Shown here: positions 4,788 through 22,593 of the stretch, one piece after another
Layout: the number at the start of each line of letters is the position of its first letter
Numbering within the stretch: position 1 is the stretch's first letter
Source: an uncultured Eubacteriales bacterium
GTDB taxonomy: Bacteria > Bacillota > Clostridia > TANB77 > UBA1234
Direction: 5' to 3'
DNA length: 64,000 bases
Assembly (NCBI GenBank): GCA_949283575.1
Contig: CASDSU010000028.1
Coordinates: 128,849-192,848, forward strand
Notes under the pieces: model-generated
Database searches by the model: none
What the model was told of the DNA's origin: nothing
What the model saw: the letters and a program-made list of their open reading frames with translations, nothing else
Translations under genes and position numbers: made by a program

Positions 4788-5585
4788 TTACGAAGCTTTC
4801 AACTCTACCATGTATACACTGTCAAATGACACATAAACAAATCCCGTTTCGACCTGAAACTTAAGCGCGCTAGATACAGACTCCTCTTGAATCCCCGTCA
4901 TTTCCTCTCTATATTTTTGATAAAAGAGAGGCATGACTTGAATCTTTGCAATCGCTTGCTCACGAGAAATCTTATTTGCATCCGCATACCTTCCAACCCA
5001 ATCAATAGGTTCCATCGTAATTTCACCTCTGAGCAGGGCCTGTGCAGCATACTGAGTTGCTCGAGAAGTCACTCGCTGAAAATAGATATCTTGTGTGATA
5101 TTCAGGAACGAAAATGCGCAAGTAACGTACCCCAGCTCACGCAACGTTTTGAGCAACGCACTCCTACTGTTAATGTGAAGCCATCCGCCATCAATCAGAA
5201 GATTTTCACCACTCTCTAGTCTCCTGCCAAACTCTCCAAATCCTAAAGAATTATTTAGAATGTTGGCATCAAAACACCGAATAACATTGGTTGTCAATAG
5301 CTCCTTAGCAGCACACTCATCCAGAGAAAGGAATTCAAACTCCGTATGAGTCTTAAGAAACTCTCTTGCATAAGTACTCTTACCGGTACAAGACTGGCCA
5401 AGAAGCACGATTGCATTCTTCCGTCCCTTGACAGGTTTGTACTCTTTGAGTAGCAACGGTTCCTTGGTTATGCCATCAAAGAAGAGATCGATTCCTTCCA
5501 AAATTGTTATCTGTTTACTCGCTGCCTTATGGTGGTTGGTCATTGCAGTCTCAAAGTTTCGTTCAAACTTGGTCTTCTTGCTCAT
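4788..5585 (-). CDS. P-loop NTPase (kinase-like fold; GQSCTGKST Walker A)
   Basis: Walker A GQSCTGKST. Start placed at MSKKTKFE with RBS GGAGGAG 6 nt upstream. Local GC about 45-48%, clearly above neighbours. Confidence 0.6.
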   Translation of the reverse strand: MSKKTKFERNFETAMTNHHKAASKQITILEGIDLFFDGITKEPLLLKEYKPVKGRKNAIVLLGQSCTGKSTYAREFLKTHTEFEFLSLDECAAKELLTTNVIRCFDANILNNSLGFGEFGRRLESGENLLIDGGWLHINSRSALLKTLRELGYVTCAFSFLNITQDIYFQRVTSRATQYAAQALLRGEITMEPIDWVGRYADANKISREQAIAKIQVMPLFYQKYREEMTGIQEESVSSALKFQVETGFVYVSFDSVYMVELKAS

Positions 5586-5746
5586 GGTTTTCTCCTCCAT
5601 TTTCGAGAGATTATTTGTTGAAAATTCAGACACACTTAATCATTGTATCACGAGTTAACATAAAATTCAATCTTTTTTATCACTTACTCCTAATTAAAGC
5701 CTAAAATTCAAAAGTTTATATTCAATAAAAAAGATTATTTTTCATA

Positions 5747-5775
5747 TTGACTTTTTTAAAAAAATACATTAGAAT
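5747..5775 (+). promoter_or_regulatory. sigma-A type promoter for the tRNA-His/tRNA-Gln operon
   Basis: TTGACT (5747-5752), 17-nt spacer, TAGAAT (5770-5775), about 20 nt before tRNA-His. Confidence 0.5.
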
Positions 5776-5794
5776 GTAACTTGCATTTGAGCAT

Positions 5795-5872
5795 GGTGGA
5801 TGTAGCTCAGTTGGTTAGAGCGCCAGGTTGTGGCCCTGGAGGTCGTGGGTTCGAGTCCCATCTTTCACCCCA
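5795..5872 (+). tRNA. tRNA-His (anticodon GTG) with G-1 and encoded CCA
   Basis: Hand-folded cloverleaf: G-1:C73, D-arm GCTC/GAGC, anticodon stem CCAGG/CCTGG, loop TTGTGGC, T-arm GTGGG-TTCGAGT-CCCAT, CCA at 5870-5872; one U-U mismatch in the acceptor stem. Confidence 0.85.
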
Positions 5873-5908
5873 CTTTTATAACTAACAAAAATGCAATAAA
5901 TTAAATAT

Positions 5909-5984
5909 TGGGCTGTAGCCAAGCGGTAAGGCACCAGACTTTGACTCTGGCATTTCGGCGGTTCGAATCCTCCCAGCCCAGCCA
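5909..5984 (+). tRNA. tRNA-Gln (anticodon TTG)
   Basis: Acceptor TGGGCTG/CAGCCCA, D-loop AGCGGTAA, anticodon stem CCAGA/TCTGG with loop CTTTGAC, T-loop GGTTCGAATCC, CCA encoded. Confidence 0.85.
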
Positions 5985-6042
5985 AATTTCATGATTTTTA
6001 AGAGAATTTTAGAAAACTTGTAAGAAACTTAAAAGTCATCAA

Positions 6043-6080
6043 ACCCAGCATTCGAGCTTATTTGGATGCTGGGTATTTTT
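6043..6080 (+). terminator. rho-independent terminator after the tRNA operon
   Basis: CCCAGCAT...ATGCTGGG stem followed by TATTTTTAT. Confidence 0.6.
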
Positions 6081-6181
6081 ATTCTCAGATTTTTTGAAGT
6101 TCTGAAAAGTATCGATTTCAAGTTACAAATTTAAGTTTCAGAAAAATTAGGTTCCAAAAGACTTTTAGGAAAGGAGAAAAA

Positions 6182-6742
6182 ATGGAAGCTAATTTCTATA
6201 AAATTAACGAATCCTTAGAAAATTCATTTTATCAAATCCCAGAAGAATTATTCAAAAACCCTATATATAAAGAAAAATTAGGCTTAGAAGCTAAAGTTTT
6301 ATATGCCTTTTTACTAAGCAGAATGCGATTATCTGCTCAGAATAATTGGATTGATGATGATGGGTATATCTATCTTATCTACAAACGTGTCGATGTTCAA
6401 AAGAAACTTAATCTATCAGATAAGACAGTTACAAAGGCATTCAAACAACTAAAAGAAGTCAAGTTAATACACGAAATAATCCAAGGAATTAATAAGCCTA
6501 ATATTATCTATTTAGCCAAAATAAAACACATGGATATGCCACAGAACTGGACTCGTAAAAATTACGAGCCCGGACACGGAAAAAATACGACTCCGAAGTC
6601 GGAAAATTTACGACCAATATATATAAATAAAGATAAAGAAAATAGATATAATATGCAAACTTCAAAATTTGACAATAGGTTTAGAGATAACAAAGGACAG
6701 TATGATGATTTAGATAAATATATTGAAAATTTTAAAGATTAA
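6182..6742 (+). CDS. replication initiator protein A, N-terminal domain family (RepA_N)
   Basis: LGLEAKVLYAFLLSRMRLS...W.DDDGYIYL motif typical of Firmicutes plasmid/ICE RepA_N; RBS GGAAAGGAG. Confidence 0.7.
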   Translation: MEANFYKINESLENSFYQIPEELFKNPIYKEKLGLEAKVLYAFLLSRMRLSAQNNWIDDDGYIYLIYKRVDVQKKLNLSDKTVTKAFKQLKEVKLIHEIIQGINKPNIIYLAKIKHMDMPQNWTRKNYEPGHGKNTTPKSENLRPIYINKDKENRYNMQTSKFDNRFRDNKGQYDDLDKYIENFKD

Positions 6743-6766
6743 TAAATAAAAAGGAGATGTCTTAAA

Positions 6767-7120
6767 ATGAAATTAGAATACTTAAAAAACGGAGATTATT
6801 ATATACCGAATATAGAATTAGGTTATGAAAATGTAAAGGTGAATTTAGGCAAATATGGAAGGCTAAGAGAAAAATATTTGAGAGAGCATAAACCTTCTTT
6901 ATTTGAGCATTTAAAGATGAGTGAAAGATTAATTCCTCATCTATCAAGTATAGATAAAGAAGCTAAAGCTTATGAAGCATTATTAATAAAACAATTTACT
7001 GAAAAGGAAAATGTTAATGAGAAATTGAAAGTAACAAATCAACTTGGGTGGGTAAAAAATATGAATTCAATTAAGCAAAGAGCCCAAGAAATTGTGTGCA
7101 ATGAAATGATTTATAATTAA
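6767..7120 (+). CDS. TnpV-like transposon-encoded protein
   Basis: KLEYLKNGDYYIP...G.YG.LR..YL..HKP...HL..ID..A...LKV.NQLGWVKNMN.I..RA.EIV resembles TnpV of Tn4451-type elements. Confidence 0.65.
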   Translation: MKLEYLKNGDYYIPNIELGYENVKVNLGKYGRLREKYLREHKPSLFEHLKMSERLIPHLSSIDKEAKAYEALLIKQFTEKENVNEKLKVTNQLGWVKNMNSIKQRAQEIVCNEMIYN

Positions 7121-7150
7121 AAATTCAACTATAGAAAAGAGGATGATTTT

Positions 7151-7474
7151 ATGCAAGAAAAAGGCTTATATGATTTAAGATTATGTGATTTCAATGAACT
7201 AATAAGTGAGGTAAAAGTAGCACTTAGAAACAAAAATAAAGAATATAAAAAGTTGCAAGACAAGTTAGAAAATATTATGGACAATCATCCAAATTTACAG
7301 ATGATTATGGAAGATGATACCGAGTTTAATTTAACAAAAACAGATTGTAAAATGCTTCAGAAATTATTTGAATTACATATAGAAATTCAAGCTTTGGAAG
7401 AACAAGAAATATTTTTCTTAGGTGGCAGAGAAGCTTACTATTATTTCAAAAATATTGGAATTTTAAAAGAATAA
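7151..7474 (+). CDS. hypothetical small helical protein of the mobilization module
   Basis: ORF with RBS AAGAGGATGA; position conserved between TnpV and MobC. Confidence 0.45.
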   Translation: MQEKGLYDLRLCDFNELISEVKVALRNKNKEYKKLQDKLENIMDNHPNLQMIMEDDTEFNLTKTDCKMLQKLFELHIEIQALEEQEIFFLGGREAYYYFKNIGILKE

Positions 7475-7479
7475 TTTAG

Positions 7480-7600
7480 AAGAAAATGCGGGTAAAAGCA
7501 GTGTTTCAAATGCGTTGAAAAATAAAAAGCAAGCAACGCATTTGTACTCCCGCACAAATACACTTGCATAGCTTTAGAATTAAAGCTATGTGATGGGAGA
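7480..7600 (+). promoter_or_regulatory. candidate origin of transfer (oriT) upstream of mobC
   Basis: Inverted repeats CAAATGCGTTG(7507-7517)/CAACGCATTTG(7534-7544), GCGGG/CCCGC arms, and palindrome TAGCTTTAGAATTAAAGCTA(7570-7589), directly upstream of MobC-relaxase. Confidence 0.4.
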
Positions 7601-7647
7601 ACCCAAGCCCCTTTTAATAAAAATTGTAAATGAAAGGAGTTAAAAAT

Positions 7648-7971
7648 ATGAGAAGAAGATCGATTAAAAAACAACTTTGGCTTAGTCAAACTGAAAATAA
7701 AATTTTGAAAGAAAAATCTAAAGTTACAGGACTAAATGAGTCCGAATTAATTCGTAGTTTTATAAAAGGTTATCGCATAAAAGAACAACCAACTGAAGAA
7801 ATAAAACAATTTCAAAAAGAGCTTTCTGGAATAGCAAATAATATAAATCAAATAGCAAAAATAGCAAACACATATCAGTTTGTAAAGCTAGATGATTTTA
7901 AATATATATCATCAAAACTTGCAGATTTTATTTTAAGATTTGAGAAGAAAATTTATTCAAGAGAGAAGTGA
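7648..7971 (+). CDS. mobC: MobC-family relaxosome accessory protein (ribbon-helix-helix)
   Basis: SELIRSFIKGY and GIANNINQIAK motifs; RBS AAAGGAG before ATG at 7648. Confidence 0.7.
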   Translation: MRRRSIKKQLWLSQTENKILKEKSKVTGLNESELIRSFIKGYRIKEQPTEEIKQFQKELSGIANNINQIAKIANTYQFVKLDDFKYISSKLADFILRFEKKIYSREK

Positions 7972-7977
7972 TTTAAA

Positions 7978-9276
7978 ATGGCTGTTATAAAAATTAAAAC
8001 TATAAAAAATAATTTAGAAGCCGTAGTAAACTATGCTCAAAATGGAGATAAAACCGAGAATGAAATATTAGTAACTGGAGTTAATTGTGTGCCACAAACT
8101 GCATATAGTCAAATGGCACTAACAAAGAAATTTTTTCATAAAGAAAGTGGTAGACAGGGTTATCATATTATTCAATCTTTTAATGGAAAAGAAGTTTCTC
8201 CAAACGAAGCCAATGAGCTTGGAACATTACTTGCAGAAGAATTATTTGGAGATAAATTTCAAGCTATAGTTTGTACTCATATAAACAAAGATAATATACA
8301 TAATCACATCGTTTTGAATTCTGTTTCATTTGTTGATGGAAGTAAACATCATAATTCAAAACTTGACATAGCATTAATAAAAGATAAGTCAGATGAGCTA
8401 TGCAAAGAGTATGAATTATCGGTAATCCAAACCTCAAAAGCAAGCAAAACCAATAAGACATATAAAAAAAGAATTTCAAAATACAATAGAAGTAATTCAA
8501 AGATGCTACAAGTGAAAGCTGACATTGATGATGCAATTGCTCAAAGTAGAAAAATGAGTGAATTTTATGATAATTTAAAAATCAAAGGTTATGAAACTTA
8601 CAAAAGAGGTATGTATCTTTCAGTAAAATTACCTTACTTTGCAAGGAATATTCGACTAGAAAGAGCTTTTGGAGAAGAATACTCACTTCATAACATTCAA
8701 GATAAAATTTATTATAGCGAAAAAACCGAAAATCAGAAAAATGGAATTAATAAGAAATATTATAGGAAAGTATATAAAGGACCTAAAATAGATAGCTTTA
8801 AGCTTAAATTTAGCCCATTTTATAGGTCATATGTTAGATGGCTTTACAAACTTGGAAAGTTACCACCTAAGATAGAATACGAAGAATTAACACCAGAATA
8901 TTTTAAGCAAAAAAGAGAAACACAAAATATTCTTGATGAAATTAGTTTTGTGGCTAGAAATAATATCAATAACATTCAAGATGTTCAAAATTGCGAAGAA
9001 TGGATTTCGGTTAAATTAACTAAAGTTAAAGGAGAGCGAGAAAATTTGTGGAGACAGTATAATAAGGCTAAATTACCAGAGAATAAAATTGAAATAAAAA
9101 TGAAAATTGATAGTAAAACTTGTGAAATTAATGCTTATAGCAATGAGCTAAAGATTTGTAGAAGGTTTATGTGGAGACGAGAAATACTTGGGAAAGAAAT
9201 AAGATTATTAAGAATTGAATTAGCAGAAAGTAAAAGAATAGTAAAAATGAAGAATTTATCACGTGAAAAATATTAA
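7978..9276 (+). CDS. MobA/VirD2-family relaxase (mobilization nuclease)
   Basis: N-terminal relaxase fold with HxxxDxxHxH metal motif (HINKDNIHNHIVLN), conserved Tyr region near the N-terminus, C-terminal coiled-coil. Confidence 0.8.
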   Translation: MAVIKIKTIKNNLEAVVNYAQNGDKTENEILVTGVNCVPQTAYSQMALTKKFFHKESGRQGYHIIQSFNGKEVSPNEANELGTLLAEELFGDKFQAIVCTHINKDNIHNHIVLNSVSFVDGSKHHNSKLDIALIKDKSDELCKEYELSVIQTSKASKTNKTYKKRISKYNRSNSKMLQVKADIDDAIAQSRKMSEFYDNLKIKGYETYKRGMYLSVKLPYFARNIRLERAFGEEYSLHNIQDKIYYSEKTENQKNGINKKYYRKVYKGPKIDSFKLKFSPFYRSYVRWLYKLGKLPPKIEYEELTPEYFKQKRETQNILDEISFVARNNINNIQDVQNCEEWISVKLTKVKGERENLWRQYNKAKLPENKIEIKMKIDSKTCEINAYSNELKICRRFMWRREILGKEIRLLRIELAESKRIVKMKNLSREKY

Positions 9277-9420
9277 ATATACAATTATAAATGAGACAAC
9301 AGAATCACGAAAAGATAGACTCATATTAAAAATATAATTTCAATAATTCTAAATACAGATTTGAAATAAAATGGTATTTATTTTATAATTCTGTTATAGA
9401 TAAATTGAGGAGGAAATATT

Positions 9421-9807
9421 ATGGATGAAAAATTTAATCAAGTGAAAAAATTAAATAAGATATCTAAAATTTTAACATTTATCATTGCAGGAGTATGGAT
9501 AATTGGTGGAATAATTGTATTTCAATTATATACTCTTTCTGATTTACAAATGGCATTTAAGGTTATAATAGATTTAATTATAAATAGTTTTAAAGGAAAA
9601 TTAAGTTTAGACGTCATATTAATTGCTTTAATGATAATAGATTTTATTGTTCTTTGTATTCAAACAAATAAATTAAAAGCTAATTGGAAAAAATTTATGA
9701 TAATTGAGTTGATAGTTAAAACATTAGTCTTATTTTACGTGGTAGGAGGATATATTTTATCTTTTTGGTATATGAATAGTTTTGTATTTGATGCATATGG
9801 AATATAA
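9421..9807 (+). CDS. small membrane protein (3-4 TM)
   Basis: RBS GAGGAGGAAA; hydrophobic helices. Confidence 0.5.
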   Translation: MDEKFNQVKKLNKISKILTFIIAGVWIIGGIIVFQLYTLSDLQMAFKVIIDLIINSFKGKLSLDVILIALMIIDFIVLCIQTNKLKANWKKFMIIELIVKTLVLFYVVGGYILSFWYMNSFVFDAYGI

Positions 9808-9859
9808 AATAAAAGGATACTTTCTTACTTGCACCAATTGTGCGAGTAAGAGTGATAAA

Positions 9860-9882
9860 GGTGCGACAAAAAATGTCGCACC
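9860..9882. repeat. perfect hairpin GGTGCGACA-AAAAA-TGTCGCACC; member of a local repeat family (other copies at about 12680-12705 and 13320-13345)
   Basis: 9-bp stem with A5 loop, preceded by ACCAATTGTGCGAGTA; a similar unit ACCAATGGTGCGAGTA plus GTACGACATTTTTCGTCGCAC lies at 12668-12705. Confidence 0.55.
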
Positions 9883-9927
9883 TTTGTCTTGCATCAACAG
9901 CACACTTTTTACATATTTTTTATCGGT

Positions 9928-10164
9928 TCACTTGTTCGGTTCTAGTATATTCCAATAACCTTTTCTATCAGAACCTATTCTTTCAATAATGTGTGTTTCT
10001 TTAAGTTTGCGTATATGATTTGTTATTGTACTTTTTCTAAATCCTGTTATTTCACATATTTCAACTTGTGTAATTTGAGGATTTTGATTCATTAGCTTAA
10101 TGATTTGAGAATCTATAATTTCTGTCTCTTTCTTCTGTCCATTTCTATTCACTTTCCAACACAT
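9928..10164 (-). pseudogene. orphan C-terminal winged-helix fragment, homologous to the HTH tail of the AlbA_2/HATPase_c_4 regulator at 13408..14871
   Basis: 78-aa ORF aligns to the C-terminus of the 487-aa protein (ILQFLADRDGAKNSEIANFIERSPSTTRKILAELKNKNII vs IIKLMNQNPQITQVEICEITGFRKSTITNHIRKLKETHII). It has no N-terminal domains and abuts the relaxase relic. Confidence 0.5.
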
Positions 10165-10180
10165 CTAAAATAGGTTGAAA

Positions 10181-10245
10181 ATAATGCTTATAGCAATGAG
10201 CTGAATATTTGTAGAAGGTTTATGTGGAGAAGAGAAATACTAAAA
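10181..10245 (+). repeat. relic of a second relaxase gene 3' end (about 63 bp, roughly 93% identical to 9128..9190)
   Basis: AATGCTTATAGCAATGAGCT[G]AA[T]ATTTGTAGAAGGTTTATGTGGAGA[A]GAGAAATACT matches the last codons of the relaxase at 7978..9276. Confidence 0.65.
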
Positions 10246-10396
10246 AAGAAACAAATATATTAAAAACACAAGAAATTTCTAAAGTCATTTTTAAAAGGAA
10301 AAAAGAAAAAGTACGATAATTATAAAAATGGCAAAGAAATTAAATCTCTGCCATTTCTTTATAACGAACTATTTTCACTCCTACTGATAATATTAA

Positions 10397-11533
10397 TTAC
10401 ATATTTTCAAAAAACAATTCATAAGTATTATCTGATTCATTTAAAAATTTTAATTCTACACACGAAAAATCCAACTCTTTTGGTATTTCAAAAACAACAT
10501 AAAATTGAGTAAGGTCTCCTTCGCAGTATTGCTTCTTTATTTCTCTTGGGATTATTGTTGCTCTAGTACTTCCTTCCAAAGCATTTTTTAAATCATAGGC
10601 TGAAACTGTAACTTCTGGTTTTACAGCAGAAAATGTTGATGTTGAATTAAACGGGAAATCTATATCAGTTAAATCTACATCAAATAATGCACAATACAAA
10701 TTTTTATTTTCATTTATTGTGTATTTAGGGAACAAACTTGTACCGCCATATCCTTCTGCAAAAGCTATATTATATTTACCAGCTTTTTCAAAAGCATTAT
10801 TATAATCTTCGATAATTTCAATAGCTGTGTTGCCACTATATATTTCTTTCATTTTTAAATGTAATGAACTCATTGAAATTTTATTATTTCCATTTTCATC
10901 AAGTCCAGTACCTGAGTGAAGATTAACAGTACCAGCTTGTCCTTTTAGGGCTGGTGTATCTGTATGAACCTTTGCTAAGGAAGCAAAACTTTCTTTTGGC
11001 AATTCTGGAATTTGAGTACTTGGTGTTATTCCTCTATACGTATCATCAAGTATTACAGAATTTGTGTTTCCATCCCATTTGATTTCTATATCAAACAAAT
11101 TTGAGATTGCACGTACAGGCAAATATGTAGTTCCTTGATAAGAAAGAGGATATACTACATTTTCGTTTACATCTTTAAAAGTTTGATACATTCCATCGTA
11201 TGAAACTCTTATTTTGTCATTTAATAGAACTTGAATATTTTCTGTAGGTTCAGCAATAAAATTTTCAATTGATTGCGCTGAAATTTTGTCTAATTCGCCT
11301 TCACCTAATTCTACAGCATTCAATTTTTGATTCCAATTAATTCTAATATTAAATATGCTAGAAATTGATCTTATTGGAAGATATGTAGTTCCTTCATAAG
11401 ATATAGGATAAACCTTCTGTCCACTTACATTTTTAAATTCTTGAATTTCATTATTATACAATATTTTCAATCCTTTGTTTAAAACTACATTAACATCTTG
11501 ACTTGCATATACGCAATTAGAGCAGAAAAACAT
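10397..11533 (-). CDS. secreted protein with two copper-amine-oxidase N-terminal-like (stalk) domains; probable true start upstream, disrupted by a T8 homopolymer
   Basis: Two repeats of Y.GTTYLP.R.IS..F...I.W. Removing one T from the run at 11553-11560 gives MKRIFLVISILAMFFCSNCVYA signal peptide in frame. Confidence 0.65.
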   Translation of the reverse strand: MFFCSNCVYASQDVNVVLNKGLKILYNNEIQEFKNVSGQKVYPISYEGTTYLPIRSISSIFNIRINWNQKLNAVELGEGELDKISAQSIENFIAEPTENIQVLLNDKIRVSYDGMYQTFKDVNENVVYPLSYQGTTYLPVRAISNLFDIEIKWDGNTNSVILDDTYRGITPSTQIPELPKESFASLAKVHTDTPALKGQAGTVNLHSGTGLDENGNNKISMSSLHLKMKEIYSGNTAIEIIEDYNNAFEKAGKYNIAFAEGYGGTSLFPKYTINENKNLYCALFDVDLTDIDFPFNSTSTFSAVKPEVTVSAYDLKNALEGSTRATIIPREIKKQYCEGDLTQFYVVFEIPKELDFSCVELKFLNESDNTYELFFENM

Positions 11534-11641
11534 TGCAAGTATCGAAATTACTAAAAAAAATTCTTTTCATATTTCATACCTCTTTTCTTTCGATTTGTTA
11601 ATTATATTATATCATTTTTAACTGTTACATTATAGAAAATT

Positions 11642-12508
11642 TTATTGTTTTAAGAATTCTTTACAAGCTTGATAAGAATATGTTACAAGATTTGCTAAAG
11701 ATTTATAATTCATTTCATAAAATGGTTTAACAAATTCGGTACTAATCTCTTTGCTGTTGTATGTTATAGATAAATGAGAGTATTTCTTAATAATTTTATC
11801 TAATTCTTCTTTTGATTTTAACTCATTTTCGTTAATTATAAATTTGCAATAAATTTTATATGTTGTTACTGGTGTACGTCGTATTTTTTTAGATACAATC
11901 TTAAATTCGAAGTAATTTCCATTACTATCTTTATAACCATTTTTATTTTCTAATTCTGAAATTTGTTTTCTTAAATTTCCAATAGCAAATTCTTCATCTG
12001 GAATAAATTTTTTTGAAGATTTTTTCTGTGTTTTTAATATATCCACTTGATTTTTCAGTTTTTTAATTTCTTCTCTTTTATTAAGACATTCGGTCAACTG
12101 ATATCTTTCAAATAAATATTCATCTAAATTATAATACCAAATACTTTTATAATAATCTGAAATTACAACTGTTGCTATGCCAACTCCGCAAGCAATTGGA
12201 AGTATAACTGCAATAATTATACTTAATACATTATTAATAGTTATTAAATTTATTATAAATGATATTAAAGATATAAATATAATTCCGAATACACCTAAAA
12301 ACACTTTGACTCTAGTTTCTTTTTTATTCTTTTCTTTCAATTTCTTGTATTCTTCATCTGAAATCTGTGTTATTTCCTTTATATCTTTATATCTTTTTCT
12401 GTAATCAATTCTTTTACCTATATCTAATCCTAATCCACTTCTAATCTCACTTGTTATTAATAAACCTATAAATATTATTATTAAATATATTATTGTTTTT
12501 AAGTTCAT
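11642..12508 (-). CDS. membrane protein with coiled-coil region (hypothetical)
   Basis: N-terminal TM, second TM pair, K/E-rich helix; RBS present. Confidence 0.5.
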   Translation of the reverse strand: MNLKTIIYLIIIFIGLLITSEIRSGLGLDIGKRIDYRKRYKDIKEITQISDEEYKKLKEKNKKETRVKVFLGVFGIIFISLISFIINLITINNVLSIIIAVILPIACGVGIATVVISDYYKSIWYYNLDEYLFERYQLTECLNKREEIKKLKNQVDILKTQKKSSKKFIPDEEFAIGNLRKQISELENKNGYKDSNGNYFEFKIVSKKIRRTPVTTYKIYCKFIINENELKSKEELDKIIKKYSHLSITYNSKEISTEFVKPFYEMNYKSLANLVTYSYQACKEFLKQ

Positions 12509-12724
12509 TTTTAAACTCCTTTATTTAAACTTCGTCAATCACTAATATATATTCTAAAATTATGTTATTTTCCATATAGCAACCATCCATTTTCGGCCGA
12601 GGTACATTTTTTAGTAATTATATGAGATATCTTGCAGTACAATTATTTATATATATTTCTCGTACCAATGGTGCGAGTATTGTACGACATTTTTCGTCGC
12701 ACATTTTATGAAATTATCTATGCA

Positions 12725-13333
12725 TTAACTTGATTTTAAACAATCTAATAATTCCATCCAACTTCTTTTGTCACATTCAAAACCATAATCTTCCGCATTT
12801 TCGAGTTCGAATATCATTTTTTCTTTTATCTCATTGGTTATTACCTCAACATTAGCAATAATAAAACTAAGAATTACACCTGTTATATATGTTTTTCTTC
12901 CTAAACCGTATTTTATTGCTTCTAGCATTAATAGTTCCAATTCATTGTTCGTAATGTTGATATCTATAACACCATCAAATTGTTTATCTTCAAATGATTG
13001 TTGCAGAGCTTTTTCTATCTTATTAGCAAAAGTAAGCCACTTCTCTTCATTATCTAAAGGTCCATAGAGTGGACTTGCGTTTCTTTCTTTGATATCTCTA
13101 ATAAAAATCATTTTCATTTTTTCTGACATATAATCAAGATTATCTATAACTATTTTCTGAAAAGTATCTAATTCAATATATTTAGCAGTATCTCTTAATT
13201 CGTTTCTTAATACACTAGCTAAAATTAATTCAAAATATAAATTTTTATTATTTATTTTCATAAAATCACCACTTTCTTGATTTATTATCTGTGAAATTTC
13301 CTGTGAAGTTATCTGTGCAGAATAATGCGACAA
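12725..13333 (-). CDS. hypothetical protein
   Basis: ORF with plausible internal start MKINNKN; no recognisable domain. Confidence 0.45.
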   Translation of the reverse strand: MSHYSAQITSQEISQIINQESGDFMKINNKNLYFELILASVLRNELRDTAKYIELDTFQKIVIDNLDYMSEKMKMIFIRDIKERNASPLYGPLDNEEKWLTFANKIEKALQQSFEDKQFDGVIDINITNNELELLMLEAIKYGLGRKTYITGVILSFIIANVEVITNEIKEKMIFELENAEDYGFECDKRSWMELLDCLKSS

Positions 13334-13344
13334 AAGTGCGACAT

Positions 13345-13413
13345 TACTCGCTCACTACTCGCTTTTACTCGCTCATTACTTGTTTCTACTCGCTCATTAC
13401 TCGCTTATTACAT
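13345..13413. repeat. tandem array of about 6.5 copies of a 10-11 bp unit TACTCGCT(C/T)(A/T)(C/T), helical-phase periodicity
   Basis: tactcgctcac|tactcgcttt|tactcgctcat|tacttgtttc|tactcgctcat|tactcgcttat|tacattc. Unit is the reverse complement of the GTGCGAGTA/GAGCGAGTA motif found at 9848 and 12676. Confidence 0.75.
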
Positions 13414-14871
13414 TCTTATTTTATATTTTCCTTTTGGGTCATTTTGAGATATTCCGTTCCAATAAATTATATTTTTATTTTTTAATTCAGCTAAAATTTT
13501 TCTTGTTGTAGAAGGGCTTCTTTCAATAAAATTTGCGATTTCTGAGTTTTTGGCACCGTCTCTATCTGCTAAAAATTGTAAAATTTTTCTTTCTGTTTCA
13601 TTGAAATTGTTCCAATTATCACTTATTGCACTATTCTTCTTTAAATCATCTTCTTGTCTTGCGTTTCTAGATAAATAATTATTTTTTAAAGTCAAAATAA
13701 ATATATCACTACTTGTTACTTTAAATTCGGGTTCTTCTAAAAAATATTTTTTCATTTCTCTATAAATTCTTGGTATTCCTTCGCTTAGTTCTCTTACAAC
13801 ACCAAATTCAGTTAAAGTTCTGGCTATAACACGATTTCTAGAGTATCTTTCTGTTTGTAAATTCTCTAAAGTTACTAATCCAGCAAGTTTTCCAGGACTT
13901 CTAATTTCCATTCTGTTGTTATAAATAAAAATCTTTATATATTCTCCACCCATTACATAATTTCTATGTGTAACAGCATTTGTAACACCTTCAACATAAG
14001 TGAATTCAGGGTATTCAGGTATAGTTTCAAATTCCCCTTCTGAATTTAAGTGTGTAGAATCTCTTAACTGTGTATGAACAAATTCTGGAACTTCCTTTAT
14101 TGCTTTATATAGTGGCAAGGCAAAAGTTTTATCTTTAATAATATTTAAATCTTTTCCGGGTAACATTTCATTTCCATCAAATTTTACAATTCTAATTCTG
14201 GCTGTAGGCAAATAAATTGATGGATCTTGAGCAAATAATAGTACGCCTGCTTTAGTTAATAATTTTTGTCCATTCACAATACTTTCTCTTAAAAAACCTC
14301 TAGCTCTTAAGACTTCTTCATCAGATTTATCTTCAGCGTCTATTTTTTGTTTATATATGCTTAAAACTTCCTTATCTATTATATCAATTGTAGCATAAGG
14401 AACCAACTCATCTTCAAATGAAACATCGGGTCTATCCATTTTCAATACTTGGATTTGCTCATCTGTTAATTTGATAGTTGAGTCACCTCGTCTTAAATAC
14501 ACTTCATCTTTTTGATTTCTAATTAATTTATTTAAACTAATCGCAATATGAAGTAACAAAACAGTATCATCTTCATTTTTTACATTTACTACGCTTAATT
14601 CTTCATATTTGATTTCTGGTTCTGCATTTAAATATTGAACACTTTTTCTAAATTGATTTAACTTATCTGGACAACTATTAAATCCAACAATCTCTCCATT
14701 GTTAGAAATTCCTACAGCAAGTATTCCTCCATCTGCATTTGCCATACCTGCAATATGATTTGCAAGGTCTAGTTCACTTATACTTGAACTTTTTCTATCA
14801 AAATTTTGATTTTCTCTGTTATTACATAAATATTCTAATGTAATAGCAGGATTTATTTTAGATGAAATCAT
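13408..14871 (-). CDS. AlbA_2 (Schlafen-like) / HATPase_c_4 / winged-helix putative ATP-binding regulator (RecG-C-terminal-like family)
   Basis: Architecture typical of the 'putative DNA-binding / ATP-dependent DNA helicase RecG C-terminal' family; C-terminal wHTH; operonic with the upstream gene (14-nt gap). Confidence 0.6.
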   Translation of the reverse strand: MISSKINPAITLEYLCNNRENQNFDRKSSSISELDLANHIAGMANADGGILAVGISNNGEIVGFNSCPDKLNQFRKSVQYLNAEPEIKYEELSVVNVKNEDDTVLLLHIAISLNKLIRNQKDEVYLRRGDSTIKLTDEQIQVLKMDRPDVSFEDELVPYATIDIIDKEVLSIYKQKIDAEDKSDEEVLRARGFLRESIVNGQKLLTKAGVLLFAQDPSIYLPTARIRIVKFDGNEMLPGKDLNIIKDKTFALPLYKAIKEVPEFVHTQLRDSTHLNSEGEFETIPEYPEFTYVEGVTNAVTHRNYVMGGEYIKIFIYNNRMEIRSPGKLAGLVTLENLQTERYSRNRVIARTLTEFGVVRELSEGIPRIYREMKKYFLEEPEFKVTSSDIFILTLKNNYLSRNARQEDDLKKNSAISDNWNNFNETERKILQFLADRDGAKNSEIANFIERSPSTTRKILAELKNKNIIYWNGISQNDPKGKYKIRM

Positions 14872-14885
14872 AAGTTACCTCCTAA

Positions 14886-15815
14886 TCACTTATTTTTTCT
14901 TTTTCTAGTATTAGCTATATTAGCCTTATTTCTACATGTTGTTGTATCATATTCAGCTTTTAAATTTTCAGCTATAAATGGTTTTCCACAATATTTACAT
15001 AGCCTAACTTCTGTTCTGCCATTTGTTTCGTTTAATAATAACATTGCATTAATTGCAGCTCTCAACGAATGAAAATTCCACTGAAATTTTATTTTTCCAT
15101 TTTCTATACCATATTTAAAATTAATTTTATATACTTCTTGGTTAAGTATCGTTTCGGCATAAAATTCTTTTAAATCAGGTTCTAAGTTACCATATAAATA
15201 AGTACCAATTACTCCTTTAGTGACATATACGCTTTCAGCAAAATCTATAATTTCAGATATTGGCTCTGCATAATTCTTTGAAAAAATAAAATCATTTAAA
15301 CGGTCACCTTCAACTTGTATAAGATTAGCGTCTAAACCAGAATTTCGGTGCAAATCATTAACTGTCATTTTTTTAGACCAATCAATCTTTTTATCAGGCC
15401 AAAAATATCTTTGCTCAAAATCTATTATTGATAATGAACTATCTAATTTTGAAGAATATGAGATTTCATTATCTTTCTCTAAAAAGTCAAAATTTTTAGG
15501 AAAATATCTAAAATTGCCTAACAACCCATATTTTGATACAAAATCTAACACAACTTTTTGAAATTCTTTTGTTTTACTCTTTGCTTCATAAGTTAAATTA
15601 GTATTGGTAAATTTTATAGTTTCATCTCCATTTACCATTTCGCCTATAATCATTAAATCCTTTAAAATATCATTTTTAATTTCAAAAGGGTCATAGGTAA
15701 TAGGCACTGCGTTTTCATCAGGTAAAACATAAAGAATATTATTATTTTTTTCAATTTTATATTTACTATACTTACACCATTTTGACATAAATTCGATTTT
15801 TTCTTCTTTTATCAT
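14886..15815 (-). CDS. hypothetical protein with C-terminal zinc-ribbon-like motif (CKYCGKPF...C) and basic tail
   Basis: ORF with RBS; CxxC...C at C-terminus followed by RKRKNK; no known domain recognised. Confidence 0.5.
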   Translation of the reverse strand: MIKEEKIEFMSKWCKYSKYKIEKNNNILYVLPDENAVPITYDPFEIKNDILKDLMIIGEMVNGDETIKFTNTNLTYEAKSKTKEFQKVVLDFVSKYGLLGNFRYFPKNFDFLEKDNEISYSSKLDSSLSIIDFEQRYFWPDKKIDWSKKMTVNDLHRNSGLDANLIQVEGDRLNDFIFSKNYAEPISEIIDFAESVYVTKGVIGTYLYGNLEPDLKEFYAETILNQEVYKINFKYGIENGKIKFQWNFHSLRAAINAMLLLNETNGRTEVRLCKYCGKPFIAENLKAEYDTTTCRNKANIANTRKRKNK

Positions 15816-16018
15816 TTCATCACCTCAAAAAAATTCATAAAAACACAAGAAAAATCTTGACTTATTTCGAATGATAATATATATTTGAAATAAGTTAGAA
15901 ACTATAATATTTCTAACACATTATAGTTTGTTTCTAAGATATATTTAAATTATATATCAAAAGTATTACAAAGTCAAATATATCTAAAGTAAAAAATGAT
16001 GAAAGGAGGGATGAACAC

Positions 16019-16222
16019 ATGAGAGATAAAGCTTTAGAATCAAAACCAATGCCAGTACTGTACTCAACAGATGATGTATGCAAAATGTTTCATATCAGTA
16101 GGCTTACTTGTCTAAACCTATTTCGCAGAAATGACTTTCCAGCTCAAAAGTTTGGACGAGCCTACAAAGTGGAAGCAAATGCACTAAATGAATATCTTAG
16201 CAAAAGACATATCTTGGCATAA
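16019..16222 (+). CDS. xis: excisionase-family DNA-binding protein (Xis, MerR-like HTH)
   Basis: 67 aa, small basic HTH protein immediately upstream of the integrase; RBS AAAGGAGGGATG. Confidence 0.65.
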   Translation: MRDKALESKPMPVLYSTDDVCKMFHISRLTCLNLFRRNDFPAQKFGRAYKVEANALNEYLSKRHILA

Positions 16223-16362
16223 AAAGAAAGAAGACTTAGAAAATGGCGTTTCTAAATCTTCAACACGAACCAGGGAATGTCCCAAGCTCTAACCTATGAG
16301 AAGATTATAACACAATAAAGTAATAGTTTTCAAGACATTCCCTTAAATTTTAAGAGGGATCT

Positions 16363-17778
16363 ATGAAAAAACTTATCGAAGGACGCGACTATTCAGTCAA
16401 TAAGTTCGTAACAAAAGATAAAAGAATTAGCTCTAATAGAAATATATGTCCTACTTGCAAAGATTGCAGCCATAAAAAACTATGTAGCAACAGAGCAACT
16501 CTATACACAATGAAGAAATGCGATAAATGTAGAGAATGCTTAGATAACGACAATTGTGATAAATATTATATCTATGTTAGATATAAAGCCGAAATCTTGA
16601 ATTTAGGGCATAATGAAATAACAGGAGAGCAAATAAGAAAACAATTCAGTGGAAAAACTAAAGAAGAAGCAGTTCAAAATTTATATAAGGCCTACGATGA
16701 AGTAATCAATAATAAGTCCAAAGAAAAAGAGACAAAAATCATTGAAGTATCAATAGTTAGCATAGCAACATCTCTTGAAGAAAAGAAACTCAAGAAAGGA
16801 CTTATTAAATCAAATGGATACAAAACGAATGCAGACACAATAAATAGAATTGGTAAAAACAAATTTGCAAATATTCCAATTCAAAATGTGACTAAAAAGC
16901 AAATTGAAGATTTCTTAGAAGAAGAAAGAAAAAACTTTAATTCTACTATCGGAAAGGATTTCAGAATTCTTAAAGGTGCATATAAAGAGGCACATAGAAA
17001 AGGTTTAATCAAAGAAAATTACTTTGACTCTGATGATCCAATAGAAAAGCCAAAAAGTCATAAGCAAGAAAAGAAAGTTGTAGCTTTAACAGCAAAAGAA
17101 CAATATCTTTTAGAAAGATATATCAATGAAAATTATTCAAAATATAACAACATCTTATTGCTATGTTTATACACAGGAATGCGAATTGGAGAAGTGTTAT
17201 CTTTAAGTCCTGATGCTATAACTTATGACAGTAAAAATGGCACTATCAATATAACAAGAACTTTAACAAGAGATAAAAATGGCAAAGTTATTATAGGAGA
17301 TGTGCCTAAAACTAAGAATGGTATTAGAAGAGTTGACCTAAGAGAAAATTCTAAAAGAGTTCTAGATAATGCACTTAAAGATATGAAGCCTAATCCTTAC
17401 AATGTAATATTTGCACAAGAAAATGGAGAGCTATACAAAGAAAGTATAATTAACAATGCTTTTAAAAGAATTGCAAAGAACGCAGGAATCAAAGTTATAA
17501 CTACCAAGAAGAAAAAGAAGAATGGAAAAACAGTAAATCTAAAATCTAGCACTGTAAATACACATATGCTTAGGCACACCTTTGCAACAAGATGTATCGA
17601 GGCAGGAGTTCCACTTCATATTCTTCAAAAAGTATTAGGTCATTCAAAATTCAAACAACTATTGATACATACGGAGATATCTACGATTACTTCAGGCAAA
17701 AAGAAATGGAAAAGTATGATGAATATATGGCAGAAATACACAATTCATTTAAGAAAGAATGCAAAAAATAAAATATAA
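16363..17778 (+). CDS. int: tyrosine-type site-specific integrase with Cys-rich N-terminal domain; C-terminus frameshifted at an A4 run (17646-17649) before the catalytic Tyr
   Basis: Conserved HMLRHTFATR and VLGHS motifs. The canonical ending ...IQTTIDTYGDIYDYFRQKEMEKYDEYM... is only in the +1 frame, recovered by inserting one A. Confidence 0.75.
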   Translation: MKKLIEGRDYSVNKFVTKDKRISSNRNICPTCKDCSHKKLCSNRATLYTMKKCDKCRECLDNDNCDKYYIYVRYKAEILNLGHNEITGEQIRKQFSGKTKEEAVQNLYKAYDEVINNKSKEKETKIIEVSIVSIATSLEEKKLKKGLIKSNGYKTNADTINRIGKNKFANIPIQNVTKKQIEDFLEEERKNFNSTIGKDFRILKGAYKEAHRKGLIKENYFDSDDPIEKPKSHKQEKKVVALTAKEQYLLERYINENYSKYNNILLLCLYTGMRIGEVLSLSPDAITYDSKNGTINITRTLTRDKNGKVIIGDVPKTKNGIRRVDLRENSKRVLDNALKDMKPNPYNVIFAQENGELYKESIINNAFKRIAKNAGIKVITTKKKKKNGKTVNLKSSTVNTHMLRHTFATRCIEAGVPLHILQKVLGHSKFKQLLIHTEISTITSGKKKWKSMMNIWQKYTIHLRKNAKNKI

Positions 17779-18381
17779 AAGTCAAACTAAATATTTCTGG
17801 AACTTAAGTTCCAAATAAGCATAAAATGCGAAAGACTTGAAATGATTTACGTGTTTTTACAAAAAAAGATTGGTGGTGAAATCACGTGATTACAATGCGA
17901 AAAAGCATAACAAATTTAAGAGATAGCAAAAAAGAGTTTATTTTAGATTGTAAGATTAGAAATCTAAATGTAGAAACAGACGCATTTACAATTCATCTAT
18001 TGCCTGATGATAAAATGAGACCGTTTTCTAATAAATACTAAATATAAAAAAGGACAAGAGCCCGGAAGAAGACTCATTGTCCTTTGCTATTTCTTAAAAA
18101 TTCTCTTGTGATTATATTGCAATTTTCTTAAATTTAAACCCAATCGCATTTTTTCCTTATTTGTAAGATTAAAAGCGTTGCTAATATATCCTTTTTAATC
18201 TCCACATTATAATCATCTAAATTTCTTGCTTTTTTCATCTATTTCCAAAAATACAAAAAATACATTGTAATAAATAACAAACTATATTTTATTACATTTT
18301 CTAGCATTAACTTTATTTCTTTTTTTAAATATTTTTTAAACTTTCTTTTAAATACGGTGTCATCCTCAATTTAAATCATCT

Positions 18382-18684
18382 CTACATATAATCCTTCGTT
18401 CCTTGTATAACCCTCTTCATAAAATTCATATACAAAACTGCTTCTTCCCTTTTTTCATACCCATCAAAAACATCAATCAAACATTCTTTTATCGAATCCA
18501 TTTCTTCTTTAAAATATTCTAACTCAGGAAGCTCTCTAATCATCTTTTCAAGCGAACTTGCAAACTCCAATTCATTTTCTGTTACCATTAACTCATAAAC
18601 TTCCTTAATAGTCTTCTCAATCATACTAACTTCTGTTTTCATTTTCATTATTTTTGGAACCAGCGTATTCGTATTTAATTTCAT
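18382..18684 (-). CDS. small helical acidic protein, partner of the upstream multi-AAA gene
   Basis: 100 aa; RBS AGGAGGAG; 12-nt gap to upstream gene. Confidence 0.5.
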   Translation of the reverse strand: MKLNTNTLVPKIMKMKTEVSMIEKTIKEVYELMVTENELEFASSLEKMIRELPELEYFKEEMDSIKECLIDVFDGYEKREEAVLYMNFMKRVIQGTKDYM

Positions 18685-21600: not shown

Positions 21601-22593
21601 ATACTTACACAGGTTCTTAACAAACGTCTTACACGATTCGCTTCCTAGCTCAAAATTCTGAAAAATCATTACTTCTGAACCATCATTAACAGCATCACAA
21701 TATGTATTAACAAAATTTCCAAGAGACTCCTCTTTTTTAAACATTACAAAATCGAAGACTTTTGGCTCACCATTTAAAATCTTTTCCTTTCGCATGTGCA
21801 TAACTAGGTCATCAATTAGATTACTAACAAATACACTTTCATTTGAATAAATTGTAATGATATTTTTCAAGAAATTAGCATCTTGTTGTTTTATGGTATA
21901 TGGTCTTTTAAATGCAAGAACCAAATTACTTACAAAATCTTTTCTCGATATTTTTTCTAAAAGTGATGTCTCTATCTCATCAAAAATTTGATTCAAATCC
22001 TTTTTCTTCTTAGGCTTCTCTTCTTCTTTTTCTGATTCAGGCGAATAGATTGCTTTATACCTTTTTTCATCAATTTTAAAATTAGTTTTGTATAAATCTA
22101 TAAGTTTAACTTGTTCTGCAGTTATTTCTCCACCTTTTTTCATAAAACTAATAATCATTCTAAGTACGCTATCTTCATAAAGCTCTTGCTCTGCAAGCGG
22201 CATGGAAGCGCACGTTTCATCGATAACAGTTTTTAATCTCAAAATATAATTTTTGTTACTTTCATGCCCGCCAAAAGAGAATCCTTTTTTACTTTCTTTT
22301 TTATAAAAATTATATAAATATTCATATTGCTTTTTTGTTAAATTTTGTTTTCTCAAAAAATCATCCAAAAAAGCTACAAACTCTTCTTCTCTTCCCCCCT
22401 CATGAGCACGCGCAATATTGGCAAACAAACCTGTAAAGCAACATGACACCTCAGGTGGCATCTCTTCACTCTTATATAATTTGCCAGCTTGAATACGTAT
22501 TTCATTATTACAAATTGGACAAATCATCGTTGTCTTATTTGAAGAAGTATTTATTTCAGAATTACAGTATGGACATACCGGAATTTTAGCCAT
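18697..22593 (-). CDS. 1298-aa protein: N-terminal zinc ribbon plus three tandem CbxX/SpoVK-type AAA+ ATPase modules
   Basis: CPYCNSEIN...ICPICNNEI zinc ribbon. Three Walker A GNPGTGKT(T/M), three Walker B LFIDEAY(S/A)L, and the VILAGY motif of the CbxX/SpoVK clade repeated three times. Confidence 0.75.
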   Translation of the reverse strand: MAKIPVCPYCNSEINTSSNKTTMICPICNNEIRIQAGKLYKSEEMPPEVSCCFTGLFANIARAHEGGREEEFVAFLDDFLRKQNLTKKQYEYLYNFYKKESKKGFSFGGHESNKNYILRLKTVIDETCASMPLAEQELYEDSVLRMIISFMKKGGEITAEQVKLIDLYKTNFKIDEKRYKAIYSPESEKEEEKPKKKKDLNQIFDEIETSLLEKISRKDFVSNLVLAFKRPYTIKQQDANFLKNIITIYSNESVFVSNLIDDLVMHMRKEKILNGEPKVFDFVMFKKEESLGNFVNTYCDAVNDGSEVMIFQNFELGSESCKTFVKNLCKYGRIEINTPKGVLEIKTNGEYFVFISNKPEHEFEDVIGLDIAENIKDVITANDFTEEEINQMINSLIEHFKKKCKKDLDINIDYMFSLEEYLRNTYSSATGINGVNLLIDHRIFRPISEYKLKGKISNKQQYIIGVEDEQIFIESNGEKLLLDNAADSRVSNRLTIVKAKLNSIIGLNEVKDYLYRLEDNITAQKMRERAGMRVAPLPLNMIFTGNPGTGKTTIARIVAEYLSALGMLEKGHFVEVSRANLVGSHPGETAQMTRECVASAFGGVLFIDEAYSLLNSKTDDYGKEAIETLLKMIEDNRDNLVVILAGYKDEMDDMLRLATGLKSRFQNIIDFKDYTADEMYRIAENIAKQNEYKIDVNCYEPLIEFFESKIYTGKNPNGNGRLVRNVMESAMANQAVRIVKENEVDYSLIKLVDFELEKKENFDLEEALSKIIGLDNVKDFLRNQYNILKAQEKRRSLGVTTDVTQSLNMIFIGNPGTGKTTVARLVSQMLKEMGFLRQGHIVEVARADLVAEYVGQTAPKTTDVFNSALGGVLFIDEAYSLSQGGDGDFGREAIDTLIKLMEDHRGEILVILAGYEKEMGDFLKANSGLESRFPLKLDFPDYTADELAQIFDKMIASRGFQITDEARAVAAEKLEFMKKTAATYSGNGRMVRNLIDEIVRNQSTRIAMLEDVALNDINIILPEDVGKKYETENSEYDYEQIFDSIIGLESVKQYIRMLAARIKIMNERKKMGLIVNDEQSLHMIFKGNPGTGKTMMARAVANMLYKLGVISTDKLVETDRAGLVAGYVGQTAMKTTEKVKEAFNGVLFIDEAYALSQGGNSDFGKEAIDTLIKLMDDNRDKLVVILAGYSKEMTEFLDVNSGLMSRFPNVIEFEDYTVDELMVIADKMYQKNGYNLTKEAKEKLKMILAVAKQDVRFGNGRYVRNVFERSLNNQALRLSMMTEMDKDTLVNILPEDLD

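Follow-up and report, generated by a model that had tools for sequence, protein, structure and literature searches.

Within the 64,000-nt stretch of DNA analysed here (the window), a short interval between the mobilization genes and the cargo genes of an integrated element carries what look like parts of two genes placed back to back: a small open reading frame (ORF) for a winged-helix (wHTH) protein and, on the other strand, a second copy of part of a relaxase gene. How did these pieces come to lie side by side, and what does their arrangement say about the history of the element that contains them? A sequence-only reading had taken the element to be a composite of two related IMEs that had suffered a deletion. 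Related elements in which the corresponding genes are longer allow the interval to be taken apart almost base by base, and we consider it quite probable that window positions 9944–10319 are an inert deletion scar, made of three pieces, within a composite IME next to tRNA-Gln.

It is useful to begin with the layout of the element. Directly upstream of it lie tRNA-His and tRNA-Gln(ttg), the latter at 5909–5984. The backbone then runs along the forward strand through genes for RepA_N (6182–6742), TnpV (6767–7120), DUF6664 (7151–7474) and a NikA/MobC-like protein (7630–7971), the last of these immediately upstream of the intact, resident relaxase gene, which encodes 432 amino acids (relaxase A, 7978–9276; Pfam PF03432, E=5e-37). 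Downstream of relaxase A is a forward-strand ORF for a predicted membrane protein of 128 aa (9421–9807); it converges with the 78-aa wHTH ORF on the reverse strand (9928–10164; Pfam HTH_24, E=3.7e-9), and between the two stand two strong hairpins, back to back (9822–9852 and 9854–9888). The cargo that begins beyond the scar is encoded on the reverse strand and specifies proteins of 378 aa (10397–11533, with Cu_amine_oxidN1 repeats by Pfam), 288 aa (11642–12508), 202 aa (12725–13333), 487 aa (13408–14871, with AlbA_2, HATPase_c_4 and HTH domains) and 309 aa (14886–15815). Back on the forward strand, the element closes with a 67-aa Xis-like ORF (16019–16222), which corresponds to an HTH_17 gene in an identical contig, and a tyrosine integrase gene (16363–17778; Phage_integrase, E=2e-21).

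The element encodes both a tyrosine recombinase and an Xis-like (HTH_17) protein for integration and excision, as well as its own PF03432 relaxase and NikA/MobC accessory protein for mobilization, and no T4SS or coupling-protein family is present among the Pfam matches for the genes at 6182–17778, with sensitive scanning covering some of the ORFs. The combination of RepA_N, MobC/NikA, a PF03432 (MobA/VirD2-like) relaxase, Xis (HTH_17), a tyrosine integrase and a tRNA neighbour is the one found in canonical tyrosine-integrase IMEs and in Firmicutes mobilizable plasmids. Unlike canonical IMEs, this one carries TnpV and DUF6664 genes in its backbone, its relaxase has at most 39% identity to any plasmid relaxase in PLSDB, and the window copy is without attR: the element adjoins tRNA-Gln, and queries of 25, 13 and 11 nt found no second copy of the tRNA-Gln end in the 64-kb window. 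Judged by its gene content, it is an IME beside tRNA-Gln that belongs to an undescribed family.

Relatives of this element were sought by scanning GTDB genomes with the relaxase, which gave 43 loci onto which the proteins of the window were then mapped. The closer relatives (about 47–64% identity) come almost entirely from uncultured Clostridium or Clostridia gut MAGs, and the related elements typically lie beside tRNA-Pro. Another related element (L004), which carries a homologue of the 78-aa ORF, is an IME at the same tRNA-His/tRNA-Gln locus as the window's, with 92% identity to window positions 5747–9885 and 16001–17845; its relaxase and its 128-aa protein share 90% and 92% amino-acid identity, respectively, with those of the window, and it has a 47-nt repeat, together with an 11-nt core right after its integrase gene. 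In the intervening cargo region, 2 kb of other genes stand between the 128-aa gene of L004 and its wHTH; an AlbA_2/HATPase_c_4 ORF follows a gene for a 599-aa ATPase, which adjoins the regulator gene upstream, and a DUF6076 gene is also present. The best PADLOC match of this ATPase is AriA (E=5e-26), and it resembles the AriA/GajA-like ABC ATPases.

The starting point for understanding the scar is a direct repeat. Positions 9123–9188 and 10176–10241 are identical at 62 of 66 bases, and this is the sole long direct repeat in 5500–18500, recovered also by local alignment. A 20-mer taken from the repeat occurs exactly twice in the 64 kb, where 0.03 occurrences are expected by chance. The four mismatches had been counted correctly in that earlier reading, although its coordinates were about 5 nt off, and the first of the mismatches, at 10181, does not reflect relaxase divergence: the base is derived from a different gene, the ATPase gene discussed below. 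The first copy, on the forward strand, comprises codons 383–404 of relaxase A and is followed by 28 further codons, so it is not, as had been thought, the last 20 or so codons of the gene; it corresponds to the conserved ...EINAYSNELKICRRFMWRREIL block, after which the C-terminal tail is hypervariable. The second copy, also on the forward strand, reads in frame as ENNAYSNELNICRRFMWRREILKKKQIY followed by a stop, with another in-frame stop just upstream at 10171–10173. The two copies are 1053 nt apart, with two small genes between them.

Although the repeat ends at 10241, homology to relaxase genes does not. Beyond the CRRFMWRRGIL block, relaxase homologues are hypervariable, and in a second reading frame the window after 10241 continues as KKETNILKTQEISKVIFKRKKEKVR and a stop; this tail matches only one (P0013, ending in ...ILKEEANILKTQEISKGISKRNKEMIR and a stop) among 120 homologues retrieved. 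At the DNA level, window positions 10176–10327 align to the 3′ end of that gene, the relaxase of L007, with 87.6% identity over 153 nt, and the alignment to this allele, which we call B-type, extends over the tail, the stop codon and 8 nt further. A single 1-nt deletion lies right after 10241. Left unrepaired, the frame stops at 10258–10260; repaired, it reads ...AYSNELNICRRFMWRREILKKETNILKTQEISKVIFKRKKEKVR and ends at the native stop codon, TAA, at 10317–10319. Read in this way, the relic (10182–10319) is the last ~46–47 codons, or ~140 nt, of a second, B-type relaxase gene that has been frameshifted once. The relaxase origin claimed earlier for this piece is thereby upheld, but its length is more than the 63 nt first given. 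As the relic is longer than the repeat, the 63-bp match is only its conserved part, in which the two relaxase alleles happen to resemble each other.

The undeleted counterpart of this side of the scar is found in a contig (L053) that was located by way of P0132, a homologue with 95% identity to the cargo protein of 378 aa. It matches window positions 11865–10176 with 93.8% identity over 1697 nt and, at 10176, where the window changes to other sequence, it runs on as an open relaxase frame that continues for at least the last 136 codons, to the end of the contig, and terminates in ...EINAYSNELNICRRFMWRRGILKEEANILKTQEISKGISKRNKEKIR and a stop. The 378-aa gene homologue, 95–97% identical, adjoins this uninterrupted relaxase frame, and a hairpin is kept between the relaxase stop and the convergent 378-aa gene. 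The corresponding hairpin in the window, at ~10324–10360 (fold z=-4.7 and -3.6), aligns to that of L053 and is the native terminator common to relaxase B and the B-derived cargo, of which the 378-aa gene is the first. In L007, too, a convergent cargo gene comes directly after the B-type relaxase; the 128-aa ORF is missing downstream of the B-type relaxases in both L007 and L053. The relic has thus kept its native downstream context, and a longer version of it exists, as an open relaxase frame in the same surroundings. The relic has diverged faster than its neighbour: identity between the window and L053 is ~89% in the relic and 96.8% in the adjoining intact 378-aa gene. Other searches gave no further material: relatives of the 378-aa cargo protein were not found in GTDB genomes or JGI metagenomes, the exact DNA pattern of the relic tail had no match in JGI metagenomes, and the scar DNA had none among PLSDB plasmids.

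On the other strand, the 78-aa ORF has Pfam matches of HTH type only; AlbA_2 and HATPase_c_4 are absent. Proteins that combine AlbA_2 (Schlafen-like), HATPase_c_4 and a C-terminal wHTH are often annotated as putative transcriptional regulators or as RecG-like ATP-binding proteins. The 78-aa ORF corresponds to the wHTH with which genes of this kind end in L004, L005 and L006, but it is without both N-terminal domains and takes its first codons from another gene; it is a fragment and not a full member of the family. Specifically, window positions 9944–10154 are the 3′ (wHTH) part of an AlbA_2/HATPase_c_4/wHTH gene, and the first codons of the ORF derive from the ATPase gene. These 211 nt have 89–91.5% identity to L004, L005 and L006, in which the homology covers 9944–10154 and nothing beyond; at the protein level, identity is 86–89% to an ORF that follows and overlaps the AlbA_2/HATPase_c_4 ORF, and in L004 the 89%-identical homologue, of 70 aa, overlaps the end of a 429-aa AlbA_2/HATPase_c_4 ORF. 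The 78-aa ORF has 11 database homologues, and every one of them is short. The sequence-only reading had placed the fragment in the family of the gene at 13408–14871, which is apt with regard to domain architecture but not to sequence. A BLASTP comparison with the protein of that intact paralogue (487 aa, AlbA_2/HATPase_c_4/HTH) detected no similarity to the 78-aa ORF, and derivation from it was therefore rejected. The parent-type gene is the one seen in L004; since HATPase_c_4 and the wHTH are out of frame in every relative examined, an intact parent is an extrapolation. What lies 3′ of the wHTH is also inherited from this gene. The hairpins at 9822–9888 fold with a dG of -41.8 kcal/mol (z=-7.9), and the second of them (9854–9888) is the regulator gene's native one, kept 3′ of the wHTH in L004, L005, L006, L008 and L009 (24–30 nt, 92–100% identity).

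Between the wHTH end and the relaxase relic is a third piece, which accounts for the remainder of the scar. Window positions 10154–10191 match the inside of the L004 ATPase gene (8226–8191) with 92% identity over 38 columns, with one mismatch and one gap opening, and the fragment of ~22–30 nt (10155–10183, reverse strand) has the same orientation as the wHTH. The scar therefore consists of three pieces and two junctions, with the ATPase fragment in the middle. Junction 1 joins the ATPase piece to the wHTH at ~10154/10155, where the two sequences share only GAA; with L004 as a ruler, the corresponding deletion is 1772 nt (8227–9998). Junction 2 joins the ATPase piece to the relaxase relic and falls within 10176–10191, in an imperfect 16-nt microhomology, TGAAA(A/T)TA(AT)GCTTAT; here the reverse complement of the ATPase gene has TGAAAATA--GCTTAT where the relaxase has TGAAATTAATGCTTAT. 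To the left of TGAAAATA the window tracks the ATPase gene, and to the right of ATGCTTATAGC it tracks relaxase B.

The arrangement is not peculiar to one assembly. It could be argued that the scar is a chimera of a metagenome-derived contig, given that the relatives, and probably the window too, come from metagenome assemblies. However, the 78-aa ORF is present on 5 contigs from different assemblies, and the arrangement is identical in L001 and L002, the latter being 98–99.8% identical across the scar. Furthermore, a more diverged relative, L008, shares both junctions and the frameshift in the relic, with 92% identity over window positions 9944–10259; its wHTH ORF is itself frameshifted. Because the same scar is present in a relative that has diverged to this extent, it is an inherited feature and not an assembly artefact, and we assign a negligible probability to chimerism. 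When differences are counted on the alignment, the window and L008 diverge by ~4% over a stretch made up of the relic and the 5′ portion of the wHTH but by ~12% over the 3′ portion of the wHTH, an unevenness that points to later recombination.

These observations bear on two other ways of reading the repeat. The presence of direct repeats 1053 nt apart that flank two small genes, with the upstream gene intact, could suggest that a cassette of ~1 kb containing the 128-aa and wHTH genes was inserted at the 3′ end of the relaxase gene and brought a replacement 3′ end with it, such that the repeat is a target or att duplication. We regard this as very improbable: the interval between the repeats encodes no recombinase, copy 2 runs on into the tail and stop of the other relaxase allele and is contiguous with L053-type cargo, a fragment of the ATPase gene sits at the supposed boundary, and the two genes of the supposed cassette are 2 kb apart in L004 with other genes between them. 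The match might instead be a conserved noncoding element, such as a terminator or an oriT-like sequence, that accompanies relaxase genes; the one thing in its favour is a position downstream of a relaxase, and it is hardly credible given that the copy contains the in-frame coding CRRFMWRR block and an allele-specific tail, that L004, L007 and L009 have a single copy per element, and that the real terminators are separate hairpins. Consistent with this, there is no Rfam match to the repeat; an Rfam scan of 9200–10500 returned one chance-level match only. A shared terminator was the explanation that the sequence-only reading had itself named as fatal to a gene relic, and the match proves to be coding sequence of a second relaxase allele.

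With the pieces and their boundaries identified, a deletion scar between two related IMEs is the reading to which we return, and its history can be sketched. One parent (A), similar to L004, would have carried RepA_N, TnpV, DUF6664, MobC, relaxase A and the 128-aa gene, followed on the opposite strand by the AlbA_2/HATPase_c_4/wHTH, AriA-like ATPase and DUF6076 genes and then by xis and int. The other (B), similar to L053 and L007, would have had the same backbone, a relaxase with the tail ...NILKTQEISK..R and a stop, the terminator, the convergent cargo of 378, 288, 202, 487 and 309 aa, and its own xis and int. Illegitimate recombination would have joined A and B. At junction 2, the inside of A's ATPase gene would have been fused to codon ~384 of relaxase B at the 16-nt microhomology, at a cost of ~7–8 kb (with L004 and the window as rulers) that would comprise the 5′ part of the ATPase gene, DUF6076, A's xis-int, the internal att, and B's rep/mob genes together with most of its relaxase. 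At junction 1, a further 1.77 kb by the L004 ruler would have been removed: the ATPase gene would have lost its 3′ part and the regulator gene everything that encodes AlbA_2/HATPase_c_4, leaving the wHTH end and its terminator. This history agrees with the composite origin and deletion proposed from the window alone, now that L053 and L004 supply the undeleted states and the scar has been divided into three pieces; the loss of one rep/mob module and of the 5′ part of a regulator gene, which had been proposed there, is part of this history as well.

How A and B came to be on the same molecule is less certain. Most likely, in our view, A and B accreted in tandem by site-specific integration at a shared tRNA att site, and the two deletions followed. 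Along the element, the backbone and cargo end of A are followed by the relaxase tail, terminator and cargo of B, collinear with L004 and L053, and longer versions of the truncated genes exist elsewhere (in L053 for the relaxase, and in L004 for the ATPase and the regulator, where the regulator gene is itself frameshifted). Tandem arrays are seen directly within the family: L035 plus L028 together contain two complete head-to-tail elements with att-core copies at three positions, L016 comprises three elements in a row, and L012 and L020 have arrays too. An independent scar is found in L037, where remnants come after a complete element: an integrase gene that has been truncated, part of RepA_N, and an ORF of 113 aa for the C-terminal end of a relaxase. 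The regulator gene, too, has been truncated independently, with the wHTH end kept, in L009, L054–56 and L057. Accretion followed by deletions is also the simplest route, since the order and orientation of the pieces call for no inversion. An internal attI, that is, a copy of the tRNA-Gln end between two elements, is not present in the 64-kb window. A deletion that spanned this site would have removed it; the tandem stage is hence only inferred, and the order of the two deletions may have been either of the two possible ones.

It is also worth considering routes without a tandem stage. The backbones look mosaic (88 to 98% identity in 250-nt windows), and an illegitimate crossover at the microhomology combined with a homologous crossover in the backbone, between the resident element and a circular relative that was either incoming or excised, could give the same product; alternatively, a single template switch could have made both junctions together with the ~30-nt filler. 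Both elements encode RepA_N, so that a plasmid-like circular form is conceivable, the similarity of the backbones would permit homologous exchange, and template switching typically leaves a short filler between two microhomology junctions. In addition, no contig that keeps A and B in tandem with these alleles was found in GTDB genomes or JGI metagenomes. Nonetheless, the order and orientation of the pieces are exactly those that simple deletions in a head-to-tail array give, and such arrays are a fact of this family, so we treat the direct routes as a minority possibility and continue to favour tandem accretion followed by deletions.

Is the 78-aa ORF only debris? It is intact in the window and in L002, and its dN/dS is 0.16–0.18 against L004 and L005 and 0.25 against the scar-bearing L008 (P about 0.003), with all values significantly below 1. 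In L004, L005 and L006 the wHTH is likewise a separate ORF of 70 aa, whose own ATG is made by a 10-nt repeat unit, AGAAATGGAC. These facts would suit a working, stand-alone small DNA-binding protein, kept or exapted after the truncation, an idea that is compatible with the scar. On the other hand, the ATG of the 78-aa ORF (10162–10164) lies in the ATPase piece with no Shine-Dalgarno sequence ahead of it, and a consensus scan found 14 promoter-like sites, not above the 10.1 ± 3.2 expected by chance (the same scan called no terminator despite the clear hairpins). Frameshifts or internal deletions affect this fragment in L008, L009, L054–57, P0008, P0010 and P0011, and the low dN/dS may stem from a past within a longer gene or from recombination. 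A working protein is therefore conceivable but doubtful. More ambitiously, the wHTH end might be a semi-autonomous module under selection whose coupling to the upstream domains is switched by AGAAATGGAC copy number, with the 78-aa ORF as an exapted regulator: 0 or 3 copies of the unit would give one ORF of 480/490 aa and 1 or 2 a split gene, 2 copies supplying the ATG of the 70-aa ORF. This we think unlikely. Our preference is for the reading in which both remnants, the wHTH end and the relaxase tail, have probably lost their functions.

The history proposed here has precedents. Evolution of IMEs and ICEs through tandem accretion, with later decay and deletion, has been described (PMC5704250), and composites of IMEs and ICEs are documented in streptococci (PMC5704250, PMC5357655). 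The closest comparison is with the ICESt1/ICESt3-related elements and CIMEs of Streptococcus thermophilus (Pavlovic et al. 2004; Bellanger et al. 2011; both cited in PMC5704250). As in those CIMEs, related elements use the same att site at a tRNA end, tandem arrays exist in the family, and internal deletion drops one set of mobility genes and leaves truncated genes and a composite island. Unlike them, the internal att has been lost here, and the evidence consists of gene relics and not of an attI; the IME family, so far undescribed, belongs to uncultured gut Clostridia; and the junction is resolved to a microhomology, with a third piece of ~30 nt.

The type of event is already well described, and the present case leaves the current understanding of the process unchanged. 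What the locus offers is a cleanly resolved case of cargo exchange between IMEs, in which the rep/mob genes of one parent have been combined with the cargo and int/xis of the other, and whose breakpoints can be mapped to the base, one of them in a microhomology. Defence-like cargo, namely the AriA-like ATPase and Schlafen/AlbA_2 genes, would have been lost in the process. The pattern of tandem arrangement and decay also matters for the annotation of genomic islands, because relics of this kind can be miscalled as small genes. More broadly, the locus and its relatives point to a widespread, undescribed family of IMEs in uncultured gut Clostridia in which tandem arrays, and decay through internal deletions, are common.

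Elsewhere in the family to which this composite integrative element belongs, complete copies are found in series: at the loci L016, L012 and L020 from gut Clostridia MAGs, and across the adjoining loci L035 and L028 on contig CADAHH010000019.1, two or three complete IMEs lie head-to-tail. In the L035–L028 array, a 13–18-nt copy of the tRNA-Pro end is present at the tRNA itself, again between the first integrase gene and the second RepA gene, and once more after the second integrase gene. The family also leaves remnants. Positions 9016–10467 of L037, a locus in another MAG, contain a decay scar that is independent of the one in the window, in which a truncated integrase (209-aa ORF) is followed by a RepA_N fragment (94 aa), then by the C-terminal end of a relaxase, present as a 113-aa ORF, and then by chromosomal genes.

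The relaxase relic in the window (10176–10241) differs at two positions, in AGAAGG and GAGAAAT, from both the relic in L008, a relative bearing the same scar, and L053, where this side is undeleted; at both it agrees with the copy in the resident relaxase A gene. These positions could reflect gene conversion, with the intact gene as donor and the relic as recipient, or could have arisen by chance. Among the closest relaxase homologues (P0012–P0131), the tail beyond the conserved CRRFMWRRGIL block is hypervariable in sequence and similar in length, most tails having R as the final residue; the tail ending in SREKY, shared by the window and its A-type relative L004, is unusual among them.

At the right end of the element, no attR was found in window 17779–18100 or in the window as a whole, the tRNA-Gln 3′-end core (searched as 25-, 13- and 11-mers) having no second copy in the 64 kb; homology to L004 stops at window 17845. 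The composite element may not be able to excise. In L004 (read as its reverse complement), two att copies lie beyond the integrase gene on its right, at about 16455–16480 and 19400–19460: an 11-nt core directly after the gene and, 3 kb further on, a 47-nt tRNA-Gln end, with ACGTGCTGAATCTCAAG following both alike. The 3-kb segment between them, which holds a Lactamase_B gene for which Pfam gives an Anti-Pycsar Apyc1-like match, is probably another accreted islet. Just past the integrase end of the window's element, a gene on the minus strand (18697–22593) encodes a protein of 1298 aa that contains three AAA/AAA_lid_6 units and matches nSTAND3/AAA_16 faintly; the gene may belong to another island or be a defence gene.

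Several short repeats lie within the element. A GTGCGAC-N7-GTCGCAC hairpin occurs twice (window 9861–9881 and 12682–12702; 0.01 expected), and at five related loci the first copy is conserved on the downstream side of the wHTH. About 6.5 copies of an 11/21-nt tandem unit, CATTACTCGCT, fill window 13342–13411, between the start of a gene encoding 202 aa and the stop codon of the AlbA_2/HATPase_c_4 gene (487 aa). The RepA_N gene itself holds, in its 3′ part, a 23-nt repeat (GGACTCGGAAAAATTACGACCCC, 2.9 copies, window 6549–6615), which may be an iteron-like origin; in RepA_N plasmids the origin is known to lie within rep. At the HATPase_c_4/wHTH boundary, on the minus strand of the window, a 10-nt unit, AGAAATGGAC, is present once in the window (~10137–10146), L008 and L009 (~2488) and twice in L004 (9997–10016), L005 (4350–4369) and L006. 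When its copy number was changed in silico, zero or three copies gave a single ORF of 480/490 aa and one, two or four disrupted the reading frame. Where the unit is present twice, the 70-aa ORF takes its ATG from it. The tract could be a slipped-strand switch or merely an old frameshift.

The A-derived part of the window has also lost cargo, equivalent to L004 6940–10213, in which the gene for an AriA/GajA/OLD-like ABC ATPase precedes that for an AlbA_2 (Schlafen-like)/HATPase_c_4 protein. In PADLOC the latter protein additionally matches a pAgo model, in its Schlafen region. The lost cargo looks defence-like.
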